Below are positions 25,119 to 35,682 of a stretch of 64,000 bases of DNA, piece after piece (positions within the stretch are counted from its first letter, which is position 1; each line of letters begins with the position of its first letter). Origin of the DNA: a virus. A program made the position numbers and the translations under genes. Below the pieces are notes generated by a model. It was given only the letters and a program-made list of their open reading frames with translations, made no database searches and was not told where the DNA came from. The stretch lies in UHGV virus genome UHGV-0057186, one strand, 5' to 3'.

Positions 25119-25592
25119 TTATTTGAATGATTTGACGTACTGAATAGAACCTTTACTATTCACGAAAGCGATTTTACCATTTTTATTATACATGGTAGCA
25201 GTACGCTGATAGCCATAAGTTTGTTTACCAGATTGATAACCAACTAATGCGAAATTATCTTCACCCATTTTATTCTGTTTAGCGCGAATACGTTCATGAC
25301 CGTGTGCCATAAGAACCTTAGCATCACCAGTTGAAATTGATCTACGAGTTTTTTCATCTTCAACTGTATTAACAAAGTCGTCAAATGAATCAAATTTAGC
25401 ATGGGATTTATTATACAGTTTTCCATCTACTGCATAATTATATCCCTGTACATCCATCTCAACTTCTGTACCATCATCCAATACAGCAGTAATTTTTTGA
25501 CCTTTTTTAAATTTCAAAAGATCAGTAAAAGATTCAGCAATAATTTGAGAATTAATAGCTGCTTCAGTGATAAATTCTTGATATGTTTTCAT
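25119..25592 (-). CDS. internal-protein-like (capsid-targeting N-terminus)
   Basis: N-terminus MKTYQEFITEAA matches T4 internal protein capsid targeting sequence; 157 aa. Confidence 0.55.
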   Translation of the reverse strand: MKTYQEFITEAAINSQIIAESFTDLLKFKKGQKITAVLDDGTEVEMDVQGYNYAVDGKLYNKSHAKFDSFDDFVNTVEDEKTRRSISTGDAKVLMAHGHERIRAKQNKMGEDNFALVGYQSGKQTYGYQRTATMYNKNGKIAFVNSKGSIQYVKSFK

Positions 25593-25648
25593 ATGTTTCC
25601 TTTAAATGTAAATATTTTTGCCGTAATACTTGTACCAGTGTGGCTTCA

Positions 25649-26017
25649 TTAAAATTTTTCATCGAGTCGTTGTTGACTCAATTTAATAGCTGATTTGCAT
25701 GGATTATAATCATTTTTCCATTCTGCTGGAATATCGCTGATGTCAGGAACTTCAGTATCTTTTATACTAAACCCACGTTTTAAGCATTCCGTTATAATGT
25801 CTGATTGACGCTTTCGCAAAAATTCTAACTTATCGTAAAAGAACGTAACATGACCAGAGCCTAAAATAAACTCGGAAGATATTTTAAAATCTTTAACCCG
25901 CTTACCATTTGCCACATGTTTACGAACTATACCAAAAACACGCGGCAATTCACGATACTCAGCCATAAGATGTTGGTCGGTCAGTTCAGAAACAAGTGTT
26001 AAATTGATACGAGTCAT
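25649..26017 (-). CDS. denV: endonuclease V, pyrimidine dimer DNA glycosylase
   Basis: [12 protein letters not shown]...[16 protein letters not shown] matches T4 DenV; GGAGG SD. Confidence 0.9.
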
Positions 26018-26043
26018 AATTTCCTCCAAGTAGTTGATGAATG

Positions 26044-26074
26044 TATAGTATCAAAGTCCTTGGAGGAAGTAAAC
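26044..26074 (-). promoter_or_regulatory. early promoter cassette for denV
   Basis: GTTTAC-N18-TACTATA; spacer arm TTCCTCCAAG complementary to SD region. Confidence 0.55.
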
Positions 26075-26075
26075 A

Positions 26076-26357
26076 CTATTTTTCTGAAGCGCCTGAAATA
26101 TATTTTTCAAGACGTTGTTTCATTAGCGAGCCGTTCTTAGCGATTTCTTCTGGTTTATCGCACATACGCAACAAGGCTTCAAGCTTAACGATATCGCTGG
26201 TACGTTCAAATTTGCGAGTATCTATCTTACTAGCAAGTTCAGAAATACGTGCTAATAGACTTTCAGCTTCAACCAAAGCTGCACCTAGCTTAGTTGCAAA
26301 TGTGTCAGTAGCTTCGTTAAGAATAGATTCTGATAAAAATTCACTATATGTTTTCAT
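26076..26357 (-). CDS. internal-protein-like (capsid-targeting N-terminus)
   Basis: [11 protein letters not shown] start overlapping e stop (ATGA); paralogue of 35425..35682. Confidence 0.55.
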
Positions 26358-26842
26358 ATATACGCTTTCCAAGTTCCTGTTTTAAATGTTGAGATTACGC
26401 GTTTCGCGCGATTAGGTGTCTGACGATACCATTTAGATTGGGCTAGATTTACTGCTGCTTCATCCCAGCGTTTTTGTTGGAGCATACGTAAAGAATTAGT
26501 AAATCCTGCCACGCCGGTTTCTCCCATTTGGAAAACCATATTAATCAATGCGCAGCGGCGAACAGCATCAAGAGAATCATAAACTGGTTTTAATTTAGCA
26601 TTTCTCAGAATTCCGCGAACAGCAGCATCAACATCCTGATTAAAGAGTTTTTCAGCCTCGTCTTTTGTAATTACACCATTGCAATTACGCCCAATAGCTT
26701 TATCTAATTCAGATTTAGCAACGCTTAGTGATGGACTTTTAGTAAGCAAATGACCAATGCCAATAGTGTAATAACCTTCTGTGTCTTTATAGATTTTAAG
26801 TCTAAGACCTTCATCTATACGTAACATTTCAAATATATTCAT
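26354..26842 (-). CDS. e: endolysin (T4 lysozyme)
   Basis: 162 aa, ~95% identical to T4 lysozyme as remembered ([33 protein letters not shown]...). Confidence 0.97.
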
Positions 26843-26855
26843 AATACCTCCTAAG

Positions 26856-26876
26856 TATTTATAGAAGGTATTTATA
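26856..26876 (-). promoter_or_regulatory. two late promoters (TATAAATA) inside SD-sequestering hairpin of gene e
   Basis: minus-strand TATAAATA at 26856-26863 and 26869-26876; flanking AATACCT/AGGTATT inverted repeat includes SD. Confidence 0.6.
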
Positions 26877-26879
26877 AAA

Positions 26880-27320
26880 TTAAAAGAGGTTGTTCATTAT
26901 TTGGTAAAGTGAAGGACCCATCACATATTGCCACTGAGTACGAGGAATAAGAGCAAAAGCATCCATCTCTGGAATCATAGCGCCATCTTTATTTTCAAAA
27001 TAAGACTCACAATGGCAATTTCTGAACATCTCATGCTCTACTGGAATCGTATAATAAAACAACTGTAGGTCTTTATTACTAGAATATTTAAATACACCTA
27101 GGTCTTCTAGAAGGTCTGGATTATAATTGTTAAAACCAGTCTCTTCTGAGCATTCTCTTCGTGCTGCATCTAATGCGCTTAAATCAGAATTTTCTACACG
27201 CCCCTTTGGAATATCCCAGCGGTGTGCCATCATTCCAGGCTTACGAGAACCAGTAACCCGACCCATAAATAAATCTTTATCTTCTGTCATGAAGATAATA
27301 CCAGCTGATAATGTTTTCAT
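26880..27320 (-). CDS. nudE: Nudix hydrolase
   Basis: Nudix box [23 protein letters not shown]; start MKTLSAG (AGGAAA SD) preferred over upstream ATG at 27335. Confidence 0.8.
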
Positions 27321-34170: not shown

Positions 34171-34173
34171 TTT

Positions 34174-34470
34174 TCACCACGCTGCGTTAATGTAAGTATA
34201 TTTAATACATTCAAGACCCAAAGGATTCTTGAAAATATCATATTCAAGAGGACCTTTTTCTGTTTCAATAAAGAAATCAAAATTTACTGTATTAAATTTA
34301 CGGTCTTCCTTCACTAATTTAACTTGTGAAGATGAACGGTCAATGTAAACCTTTTCAACTTCAAAACATGTTAAAATGCCATAATCATCAATCAAGGCTT
34401 TAGCTGCTTCTTGATCATATTTATATCCATTTTCAATGGATGATACTTTAGCATAAAGAATCATTATCAA
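34174..34470 (-). CDS. hypothetical protein (98 aa)
   Basis: ORF in track. Confidence 0.55.
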   Translation of the reverse strand: MIMILYAKVSSIENGYKYDQEAAKALIDDYGILTCFEVEKVYIDRSSSQVKLVKEDRKFNTVNFDFFIETEKGPLEYDIFKNPLGLECIKYTYINAAW

Positions 34471-34868
34471 CCTTCATCAACAACAGTATGCGTATTGGCA
34501 TTTACGATTTGCCACCAATCAAAGCGATTAGAACCATACATCGGTTTGTTTTCATTTTCTTTGATAATGTCACGGAGTTCATCTTCAGAGAATGCTTTAG
34601 CGATTAAATCGGTATACCCACCACGTGGATAATAATTATCACCTGCAAACAAAAGGAAATTTACCTTCCCGGAAGGAACATACGCTTCCTTAGGATACTT
34701 GTTTCCTGCGTGGTCAACCACTTCAATATAACGGTAAGGAATATCGGTTCTTTCAACCCATTGCCATGCCGCTGCAGGGGAATCGAAAGCATCTACACCT
34801 AAACGATTATCTTCATCTTTAGACGGATTATTTTCGTAATCCGCATATACATAATATTCAACGTTCAT
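34467..34868 (-). CDS. hypothetical protein (133 aa)
   Basis: ORF in track; coupled to neighbours. Confidence 0.55.
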   Translation of the reverse strand: MNVEYYVYADYENNPSKDEDNRLGVDAFDSPAAAWQWVERTDIPYRYIEVVDHAGNKYPKEAYVPSGKVNFLLFAGDNYYPRGGYTDLIAKAFSEDELRDIIKENENKPMYGSNRFDWWQIVNANTHTVVDEG

Positions 34869-35053
34869 TATTCACCTTTAGAAATTTTATCCATAACGAT
34901 AGCAATTAAACCAATTAAAAATGCTACTACAAGTGAAAAAACATTTTCTGCCGTAGTCAATAATCCGCATATAAATCCAACAAACATTGAAAAACTGAAA
35001 GCGGAAGCAGAAATTGCAATAGCAACATTTCGAATTAATTCACAGCGTTTCAT
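34868..35053 (-). CDS. small membrane protein (61 aa)
   Basis: start MKRCELIRNVAIAISASAF with GAGGAG SD; two hydrophobic helices. Confidence 0.45.
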   Translation of the reverse strand: MKRCELIRNVAIAISASAFSFSMFVGFICGLLTTAENVFSLVVAFLIGLIAIVMDKISKGE

Positions 35054-35080
35054 TTTATTCTCCTCAGTAGTTGATAGGGT

Positions 35081-35110
35081 AATAGTATCACTACCCCATC
35101 TAAAAGTAAA
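35081..35110 (-). promoter_or_regulatory. early promoter cassette variant (ATTTAC / TACTAT)
   Basis: -35-like TTTACT, TACTAT -10 flanked by GGGTA/TACCC inverted repeat. Confidence 0.4.
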
Positions 35111-35111
35111 T

Positions 35112-35345
35112 TTATTTTTTACGAAAAATTGATTTATTTTCTGCTGCCCATTTTTCAATAACTGCAGCAGGACCAGTAACAACAATTTTATCACCGTAAT
35201 CTTCTGCGGCGAGTTGACCGAAATTATCTAATGCATCACGAAGAACTCCATGAGGCATTTCACCCATTTTATCTTTCTTGCCGGTGTAAATAAACTCAAC
35301 TTTTGCATCAGAAGATTCAGCGATAAATTCTTTGAAAGTTTTCAT
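35112..35345 (-). CDS. internal-protein-like (capsid-targeting N-terminus)
   Basis: MKTFKEFIAESSDAK start; 77 aa; weak SD. Confidence 0.5.
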   Translation of the reverse strand: MKTFKEFIAESSDAKVEFIYTGKKDKMGEMPHGVLRDALDNFGQLAAEDYGDKIVVTGPAAVIEKWAAENKSIFRKK

Positions 35346-35382
35346 TTTAGTTTCCATTCGATTGTTTTGTTTTGATAGGGTA

Positions 35383-35412
35383 ATAGTATCACAACTAAAA
35401 CCCTATGTAAAC
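35383..35412 (-). promoter_or_regulatory. early promoter cassette (GTTTAC / TACTAT)
   Basis: GTTTAC-N18-TACTAT with ATAGGG/CCCTAT inverted repeat. Confidence 0.5.
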
Positions 35413-35424
35413 AACTTTGTGAAA

Positions 35425-35682
35425 TTATTTTAAATCTTCTAATCGTTTCTTCATCTTAGAACCATTTTTAGCAATTTCTCCTGCATCGGAGCATAATGCT
35501 AAAAGTGCTTTAACTTTAGTTTGGTCTCCTTTAAAAGATGAAGGATCGACTGCAGCAGCAAGTTCTTTAATACGAGAGAAAAGACGCTCAGCTTCAGCTA
35601 AAGCCATTCCAAGCTTTACTTCCATACCGTGAGAAGATTCAGTGATAGTAGTTTTTGTAGCAAACTCTTTGAAAGTTTTCAT
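35425..35682 (-). CDS. internal-protein-like (capsid-targeting N-terminus), ipI position
   Basis: MKTFKEFATK start; paralogue of 26076..26357; adjacent to 57B as ipI is in T4. Confidence 0.55.
   Translation of the reverse strand: MKTFKEFATKTTITESSHGMEVKLGMALAEAERLFSRIKELAAAVDPSSFKGDQTKVKALLALCSDAGEIAKNGSKMKKRLEDLK

Follow-up and report, generated by a model that had tools for sequence, protein, structure and literature searches.

The DNA analysed, a stretch of 64 kb referred to here as the window, is a mosaic Tequatrovirus (T4-like), with an identity of ~95–96% to many sequenced phages. Over 24 kb, the closest matches in the phage collection showed 95–96% identity at 90–93% coverage. Five open reading frames (ORFs), all on the minus strand, encode products with a common N-terminal leader, four at the coordinates of the internal-protein (Ip) genes in Table 1 and the fifth at 31366–31689, each just where the first-pass annotation had placed it. 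Four genes are located in the e/denV and 57B-tRNA regions, which are the two Ip loci recognised so far, and the fifth lies outside both. By their database matches these four are T-even internal-protein genes that already carry a name or annotation in sequenced phages, namely Ip4, Ip5, Ip6 and an Ip5-type paralogue, and the novelty implied at first is withdrawn. All four are labelled internal virion/head protein by PHROGs (E 1e-46 to 1e-101), and Pfam and NCBIfam scans returned DUF7412 for Ip4 and no meaningful match for the other products. The gp21 gene is situated outside the window, which ends within gene 20.

Table 1. Internal-protein genes and associated features in the window (a slash marks the predicted cleavage site).
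Feature	Coordinates	Strand	Description
ip4	25119..25592	-	157 aa; on the vs.8 side of denV
denV (endonuclease V)	25649..26017	-	Separates two internal-protein genes; denV in the syntenic ime09, REP3 and slur03 records
Ip5-type paralogue	26076..26357	-	93 aa; 10-residue leader, then S; second L-N-E at residue 15
Lysozyme e and two late-promoter boxes	26354..26876	-	e at 26354-26842; TATAAATA at 26856-26863 and 26869-26876
Leaderless remnant of a second phrog_2280-type CTS protein	30372..30656	-	C-terminal 75 aa
phrog_2280 gene	31229..31689	-	CTS-like leader MKTYAQFLMTE/A; broken by an A7-to-A6 frameshift at 31419-31424
Terminator-like hairpin and late promoter	31718..31755	-	Hairpin 31732-31755, TATAAATA directly after at 31718-31725
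ip6	35112..35345	-	77 aa; leader MKTFKEFIAE/S; predicted mature protein 7.4 kDa; phrog_8111 'internal virion protein'
T4 early-type promoter in stem-loop, upstream of ip6	35346..35424	-	TTTACA-17-TACTAT at 35383-35411; one copy of a 71-nt repeat
ip5	35425..35682	-	85 aa; occupies the ipI slot beside 57B; phrog_3499
T4 early-type promoter and stem-loop cassette upstream of ip5	35683..35754	-	Nearly identical to the cassette upstream of T4 ipI

Across the six frames of the window there are exactly five matches to the motif MKT[YF]x[EQ]F, each at the start of one of these ORFs and each preceded by a GGA-type ribosome-binding site; 300 dinucleotide-preserving shuffles of the window gave a mean of 0.003 occurrences and a maximum of 1. 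A conserved leader (capsid targeting sequence, CTS) on diverse cargo is a known pattern (PMC3012670), and the experimentally defined rules assign targeting to positions 4 and 7 and processing to positions 8 and 10 (PMC9026906). All five leaders have the targeting determinants, M-K-T with Y/F4 and F7. The processing motif [L/I]-x-E was found in four, ending at residue 10 in Ip4 (ITE) and Ip6 (IAE), at residues 10 (LSE) and 15 (LNE) in the Ip5-type paralogue and at residue 15 in Ip5 (ITE), the last resembling the 19-residue leader of T4 IPI. Cleavage after Glu, initially proposed for all five, is predicted for these four, while the fifth leader (FLMTE) is non-canonical, lacking [L/I]-x-E at positions 8–10.

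It is highly improbable that the common 5′ ends owe their conservation to a role of the DNA or RNA (recombination linker or translation-initiation region) instead of one as a targeting peptide. Promoter, Shine-Dalgarno and leader DNA are indeed common as blocks to T4 ipI and ipII, the cassettes are flanked by repeats, and such elements have been proposed as mediators of shuffling (PMC2839356). However, the leader codons vary at synonymous or conservative sites (ACA/ACT, TAT/TTC, GAA/GAG) while the peptide is kept, and therefore the constraint acts on the peptide; a 10-residue CTS was also experimentally sufficient to package foreign proteins (PMC9026906). A role as DNA or RNA and a role in targeting are not mutually exclusive, and the identity of leader and cassette DNA probably explains the swapping of cargo.

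In the e/denV locus, Ip4 showed 99% identity to RB27_126, whose note reads 'Ip4', and matched DUF7412 (E 1e-95) and phrog_3155, 'internal virion protein'. Its leader, MKTYQEFITE/A, is followed by a predicted mature protein of 16.5 kDa with a pI of 9.1, and the leader DNA and the 50 nt upstream are identical to those of T4 ipII. The AlphaFold2 model of Ip4 was poor, with a mean pLDDT of 54. The Ip5-type paralogue belongs to phrog_3499, 'internal head protein' (E 1e-46), and 100% identical copies adjoin e in ime09 (note RB69ORF127c), phi25-307 and others, where they are annotated 'internal head protein', as they are in RefSeq. A search with the legacy names RB32ORF132c and RB32ORF133c gave no matches. 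The ATG of the paralogue and the stop codon of lysozyme e overlap (ATGA), the two genes being translationally coupled, and the two TATAAATA boxes of e probably drive the paralogue as well. A late promoter, at first ascribed to one of the five genes, was found at that gene (31366–31689), but the gene at 26076 probably also receives late-promoter input through e.

The order e, Ip5-type gene, denV, Ip4, vs.8 is the same as in the ime09/slur03/Kha5h type of locus, with a DNA identity of 99.2–99.9% and no material difference. The layout was matched at >99% in slur03, slur14, Kha5h and ime09, and 166 records cover at least 80% of the e-denV segment. It is a common alternative to the T4 layout. A rearrangement specific to this phage was rejected, because the same order is present at >99% identity in many records. 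The presence of five genes, as against three in T4, and the different order around denV are real, but they are known polymorphisms and not anomalies.

In the 57B-tRNA region, Ip5 has a long, IPI-type leader, MKTFKEFATKTTITE/S, and a predicted mature protein of 7.5 kDa with a pI of 9.2. It is 100% identical to Ip5 of RB15 (Z35082, deposited 1994) and 98.8% to ip5 of T2. Ip6 shares 98.7% identity with ipVI of Yersinia phage PST and 71% with ip6 of VR7, and is found in 246 records. Both genes have an early-type promoter and no late promoter, each lying behind a repeated early promoter in a stem-loop like the PeSL and PeSL-like promoter/stem-loop cassettes described at Ip loci (Arbiol et al. 2010). 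T4 ipI, the product of which is packaged, has a cassette like that of ip5. The phrog_2280 gene differs from the PeSL arrangement in having another cassette, repeated on either flank, in which a G+C-rich terminator hairpin precedes a late promoter.

The products of the genes at 26076 and 35425, both phrog_3499, aligned over 84 residues with 48% identity (E 1e-24), confirming the alignment along their length given in the first-pass annotation. The description of the pair as duplicated holds in that they are paralogues, but these are old ones and usually alternatives to each other, occurring together in at most 13 of 497 records. A recent duplication in situ was rejected on the low identity of 48% and since nearly all genomes carry just one of the two genes, so recombination probably joined two old alleles.

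The internal proteins of T4 carry the same leaders, MKTYQEFI.E (IPII/IPIII type) and MKTFKEF...ITE (IPI type), and they share with the Ips of the window the same two genomic slots, the same upstream cassettes and a small mature protein. A comparison with IPI, IPII and IPIII, as suggested initially, bore out the similarity of the leader and none beyond it: the mature parts had no detectable similarity by BLASTP. The window proteins are so not orthologues of the T4 proteins, and the GmrSD targets of Ip1–3 are therefore not transferable to them. Homology of the mature proteins to Ip1, Ip2 or Ip3 and relatives with solved structures were not found, and sequence searches of the PDB with Ip4, Ip5, Ip6 and the repaired phrog_2280 protein were negative. 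The relatives of the window proteins are found instead among Ip4–Ip7 of T2, RB15, RB27, RB51, PST and VR7 (Repoila et al. 1994 series; Z35082), with identities of 99–100% for Ip4 and Ip5 and 98.7% to PST ipVI. The combination differs, T2 having Ip4, Ip5 and Ip7 and the window Ip4, Ip5 and Ip6 with the e-linked Ip5 paralogue. Two hypervariable Ip loci and >30 Ip variants are described in the literature, and the Ip set of the window is a mosaic, built by recombination via the common leader and promoter cassettes.

The fifth gene is found next to the tRNA cluster, in the interval from e.8 to rnaC/rnaD-tRNA. The frame 31366–31689 had been taken for a whole gene, which proved incorrect: alignments to REP3, VIPECOOM01, RB27 and B1.1 revealed the frameshift, the frame encoding 107 aa, including 18 out-of-frame residues, versus 153 aa for the RB27 and B1.1 proteins. 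A small ORF at 31229–31369 makes up what remains of the gene, and both halves match the PHROG. With one A inserted, a protein of 153 aa is obtained that is 100% identical to that of Pu-Krd-SF3. The A7 run is A6 in the window and in SfPhi01-type entries, and another entry shows the opposite shift. The late-promoter octamer reported at 31718–31725 was indeed present on the minus strand, with the ATG 29 nt downstream of it, and a near-identical hairpin follows the gene at 31198–31221. Across the whole window the octamer shows no enrichment (16 observed vs 10.75 expected); its position directly after the terminator hairpin is kept in REP3, VIPECOOM01, RB27, B1.1 and Klebsiella Jiaodavirus KP01. 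The neighbouring remnant is 99% identical to residues 113–187 of a 187-aa VIPECOOM01 protein, which starts MKTYAEFLTEAA, and matches phrog_2280 positions 100–178; unrelated DNA of ~590 bp has taken the place of its 5′ half.

There is about an even chance that the phrog_2280 family represents a class of internal proteins so far unrecognised, packaged and injected and encoded at a third Ip locus; its mobile unit would consist of terminator hairpin, late promoter and leader, with the A7 run as a recurrent frameshift site. If true, this would contradict the published statement that confines Ip genes to two loci. It is possible, if rather doubtful, that the gene at 31229–31689 encodes some other late protein with a merely CTS-like N-terminus, or is a dead pseudogene here. 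The family is present in 512 phage records, 'hypothetical' in all those sampled and of 'unknown function' as a PHROG, and the gene is positioned outside the two loci recognised in the literature. The allele in the window is frameshifted and has L-M-T-E in place of [L/I]-x-E, and the second copy nearby has wholly lost its leader, suggesting that the site is decaying. Neither fold nor sequence searches linked the protein to anything known; with the AlphaFold model (pLDDT 72.8, all-helical, leader disordered), Foldseek found nothing significant in the PDB (best E 1.1). Against this, the leader agrees at positions 1–4 and 7–8, a chance match being expected at ~1e-6 per gene, and most family members have L-N-E at positions 8–10, often with a second L-N-E at 13–15. 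The cassette of hairpin and TATAAATA persists together with the leader even in Klebsiella Jiaodavirus KP01 (MKFKEFLAE/A). In the model, residues 1–15 are predicted to be disordered and are followed by a confident 3-helix domain, as would be expected of a detachable propeptide, and the truncated product would retain both leader and domain. The phrog_2280 product is a putative internal protein and the only mildly new element of the set.

Taken together, the five genes very probably encode T-even internal proteins that are targeted by the CTS, processed by gp21, packaged in the head and injected, most probably with an anti-defence role. The CTS would bind the protein to the scaffolding core during prohead assembly, and the prohead protease gp21 would remove the leader after Glu, at [L/I]-x-E at positions 8–10 or, in Ip5 with its IPI-type leader, at residue 15. 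Once matured, the small protein would remain in the head with the DNA, be injected along with it and act before any phage gene expression, its most probable role being that of a specific inhibitor of a modification-dependent (GmrSD-type) host defence nuclease. Sequence identities, leaders, cleavage motifs, promoters and synteny form the basis from this work; targeting, cleavage, injection and the anti-GmrSD activity of Ip1–3 are drawn from the T4 literature, and we infer these properties, and the targets, for the five proteins of the window. For four of the five, databases and literature agree with the initial reading as T4-type CTS internal proteins of a hypervariable locus class, likely injected against host defences. 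A literature search for virion proteomics of phages carrying these genes found none, nor any data on processing of the proteins, and the fPS-2/65/90 paper contains no virion proteomics.

Of the T4 proteins, Ip1, Ip2 and Ip3, every one inhibits a different GmrSD (PMC12373910). Assays of ip4–ip10 against 15 GmrSD groups gave no reproducible inhibition (Silas et al. 2025); it is therefore unproven that Ip4, Ip5 and Ip6 act against GmrSD, and these proteins may have other targets. This result would also suit proteins that are packaged mainly for a structural role, as DNA counter-ions or head-assembly helpers, as would the slower head assembly and reduced burst of IPIII mutants (PMC9026906) and the basic pI of Ip4, Ip5 and the phrog_2280 protein (9.1–9.4). 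Such a role is nonetheless unlikely to be the main one: Ip6 and the Ip5-type paralogue are near-neutral (pI 6.3–6.5), specific defence targets are now known for each of the three T4 Ips, and extreme presence/absence polymorphism with non-homologous cargo fits an arms race better than a structural need. Deletion of IPIII leads to a loss of host range that is rescued by leaderless protein expressed in the host.

The five-gene observation is a correct rediscovery of known internal proteins and as such ordinary; Ip4, Ip5, Ip6 and the Ip5-type paralogue are all catalogued, so nothing new follows from this set. Of all phage products, injected internal proteins are the first that host defences encounter, and those of T4 are all three specific inhibitors of GmrSD (type IV) restriction enzymes. 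The Ip set therefore helps to predict host range, which is useful for the composition of phage therapy cocktails. A modest lead is offered by the widespread, unannotated phrog_2280 family at the third site, which could enlarge the pool of unscreened candidate anti-defence effectors.

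The first-pass annotation had described five genes with T4-type leaders, and all five open reading frames (ORFs) were present with the N-termini it gave. Translated in six frames, the whole 64 kb contain exactly five matches to the motif MKT[YF]x[EQ]F, one opening each of these ORFs and each preceded by a GGA-type Shine-Dalgarno sequence; 300 dinucleotide-preserving shuffles gave a mean of 0.003. The observation is correct and goes well beyond what chance would give. The leader codons vary among the genes, with synonymous or conservative differences (ACA/ACT, TAT/TTC, GAA/GAG), so that the peptide is conserved and not merely the DNA. 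In experiments on IPIII, residues 4 and 7 of this capsid targeting sequence (CTS) were the determinants of targeting and residues 8 and 10 those of processing (PMC9026906). Set beside the T4 IPI leader, MKTFKEFTSTTTPVSTITE/A, that of Ip5 is of the same long type. Predicted mature products are of 7.4-16.5 kDa, basic (pI 9.1-9.4) for Ip4, Ip5 and the phrog_2280 protein and near neutral for Ip6 and the Ip5-type paralogue.

Coordinates of the internal protein (Ip) genes and neighbouring features (slash, predicted cleavage point)
Feature	Position (strand)	Leader or remark
Ip4	25119-25592	MKTYQEFITE/A
Promoter-like site	26045-26074 (-)	GTTTAC-18-TACTAT, upstream TG
Ip5-type paralogue	26076-26357	10 letters not shown, then /S; second L-N-E, ending at residue 15
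TATAAATA boxes of e	26856, 26869	late promoters
Terminator hairpin, third copy	30345-30363 (-)	weaker, farther along than the flanking pair
Second phrog_2280 gene, remnant	30372-30656	leaderless
Replacement DNA	30600-31193	~590 bp
phrog_7474 ORF	30778-31155	unknown function
Terminator hairpin	31198-31221 (-)	AGCCCC...GGGGCTTTTT
phrog_2280 gene, full extent	31229-31689 (-)	frameshifted
phrog_2280 gene, remainder ORF	31229-31369	matches family positions 121-172
phrog_2280 gene, first ORF	31366-31689	107 aa
A run	31419-31424 (-)	A6
TATAAATA box of the phrog_2280 gene	31718-31725 (-)	late promoter
Terminator hairpin	31732-31755 (-)	AGCCCC...GGGGCTTTTT
rnaC/rnaD-like DNA	~31800-32070
T5orf172/MUG113 gene	32043-32597 (-)	184 aa
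tRNA genes	32619-33568 (-)	Arg, Asn, Tyr, Met(CAU), Thr, Ser, Pro, Gly, Leu, Gln
71-nt element	35069-35139	before trna.4 homologue
Ip6	35112-35345	MKTFKEFIAE/S
71-nt element	35370-35440	before ip6
Ip5	35425-35682	MKTFKEFATKTTITE/S
71-nt element	35700-35770	before ip5

Four of the genes could be named. Ip4, the counterpart of T2 ip4, is 99% identical to RB27_126 (record note 'Ip4') and hits both Pfam DUF7412 and phrog_3155, 'internal virion protein'; its family retains the leader along with an invariant Glu20. Ip5 is 100% identical to RB15 Ip5 (GenBank Z35082) and 98.8% to T2 ip5, while Ip6 (phrog_8111) shares 98.7% with ipVI of Yersinia phage PST and 71% with VR7 ip6. The Ip5-type paralogue is 100% identical to a RefSeq 'internal head protein' (note RB69ORF127c), and identical copies adjoin the lysozyme gene e in ime09, phi25-307 and many others. 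None of the five products resembles T4 IPI, IPII or IPIII outside the leader, which is the documented Ip pattern of a conserved CTS on unrelated cargo (PMC3012670; PMC9026906). The count of five, against three in T4, was borne out but is not remarkable: T2 has three different Ip genes (ip4, ip5 and ip7), and the literature puts the variants at 'at least 10' or 'more than 30'.

The region is the segment from e-denV (denV, endonuclease V) to 57B of a T4-like myovirus, genus Tequatrovirus. The best phage-collection matches over 24 kb (vB_Eco_Some, ph0021, G29, REP3, slur07) show 95-96% identity at 90-93% coverage. As no record of the collection matches at full length throughout, the window combines known modules in a new mosaic. 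The minus-strand order is as in T4: vs.8, Ip, denV, Ip, e, nudE, e.2-e.8 and, farther along, ten tRNA genes, trna.2-4, two Ip genes, 57B, 57A and gene 1. The window ends in gene 20, with the gene for the prohead protease gp21 just outside. T4 has eight tRNA genes to the ten found here, which no other gene interrupts. Between tRNA-Arg and DNA resembling RB27 rnaC and rnaD, which falls below every Rfam family threshold, a T5orf172/MUG113 (GIY-YIG-like) protein of phrog_5032 is encoded, with weak matches to homing endonuclease families. Its gene, also carried by REP3, occupies a place analogous to that of segB in T4 and is probably a mobile insertion of endonuclease type.

The order around denV does differ from that of T4 but is a variant of the locus that many phages share, not an anomaly. 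The layout e, Ip5-type, denV, Ip4, vs.8 has 99.2-99.9% matches in vB_Eco_EL, slur03, slur08, slur14, Kha5h and slur07; 166 records contain 80% or more of the e-denV segment. The reported alignment of Ip5 with the e-linked product along their length was confirmed (84 residues, 48% identity, E 1e-24; both phrog_3499). Recent duplication was rejected as the origin of the pair, the identity being only 48%; from their sequences, the two are taken to be old paralogues joined by recombination, as in ime09. Ip5-type genes occur at 510 places in 497 records; at most 13 records thus hold two copies, and the forms in the ipI slot and next to e are nearly always alternatives.

The 71-nt repeat ahead of ip5 and ip6 contains a T4 early-type promoter (TTTACA-17-TACTAT, upstream TG) inside a stem-loop. 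Its ip5 copy hardly differs from the sequence ahead of T4 ipI, and ip4 and T4 ipII have the same 50 nt upstream. These elements correspond to the PeSL-like cassettes of T4-type phages, proposed as recombination linkers that shuffle Ip genes (Repoila et al., 1994; Arbiol et al., 2010). The late box noted ahead of the fifth gene is present, but this gene is not the only one so placed: in an ATGA overlap, the Ip5-type paralogue starts where e stops, and two such boxes belong to e, so that the paralogue is probably made late, together with lysozyme. Directly past its stop codon and ahead of denV, a site resembling an early-type promoter was read by eye. If this site is functional, ip4 could be transcribed both from there and, by read-through, from the late promoters of e.

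The fifth gene belongs to phrog_2280, a family of unknown function found in 512 phage records by tblastn; all sampled annotations read 'hypothetical protein'. An A run has six residues here and seven in RB27, B1.1, REP3 and VIPECOOM01, leaving a product with 18 residues out of frame. With one A added, the 153-aa protein is identical to that of phage Pu-Krd-SF3. Database proteins show the same run shifted both ways (P0008, SfPhi01 type, 111 aa; P0006, 93 aa), and the A6 run could be a sequencing error, a real mutation at a mutational hot spot, or slippage. Family N-termini include MKSYAQFLNE/AVLNE/A, MKTYNEFLNE/S and MKTYAEFLTE/AA; the allele of the window, RB27 and B1.1 has a 12-nt deletion giving FLMTE/A, without the canonical [L/I]-x-E.

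Two near-identical G+C-rich terminator hairpins flank the gene, the late promoter following directly on the upstream one; this cassette differs from those of ip5 and ip6, which combine an early promoter with a stem-loop. Klebsiella phage KP01 (Jiaodavirus) keeps the hairpin-TATAAATA-leader arrangement (L008:1125-1160); its homologue starts MKFKEFLAE/A, adjoins tRNA genes and has only the N-terminal domain in common. In an AlphaFold2 model (mean pLDDT 72.8) the leader (residues 1-15) is disordered and is followed by three helices forming a confidently predicted domain (18-75), a linker rich in Pro and Lys, and a helical hairpin; the model has no significant fold match in the PDB. On this model the truncated product would keep leader and three-helix domain. 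Leader, cassette, conservation in KP01 and model features make an internal-protein role for phrog_2280 plausible, with moderate confidence. Ip genes have been regarded as confined to two loci. Farther along lie the last 75 aa of a second phrog_2280 CTS protein (99% identical; 187 aa in VIPECOOM01), the 5' half of whose gene is replaced by DNA absent from REP3, RB27 and VIPECOOM01; the phrog_7474 ORF lies in this replacement.

In T4, Ip proteins are brought to the scaffolding core by the CTS and then cleaved by gp21; about 360 copies of each stay in the head and enter the cell with the DNA (PMC9026906). Ip1, Ip2 and Ip3 each block a single, specific type IV restriction enzyme of the GmrSD type, with no cross-protection, and IPIII lacking its CTS is still active in the cytoplasm. 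We infer that the Ip proteins of the window would take the same route of core targeting, gp21 cleavage and injection. Their proposed role as injected anti-defence effectors is likewise inferred and may hold, but in published tests ip4-ip10 gave no reproducible inhibition against 15 GmrSD groups, and their targets may be of another kind. The interpretation in the first-pass annotation was essentially right, and the five-gene finding is a rediscovery of a textbook T-even feature, described since 1994 and already annotated so for four of the five. What is new is an unannotated leader-bearing family, phrog_2280, at a third site, defective in the window.
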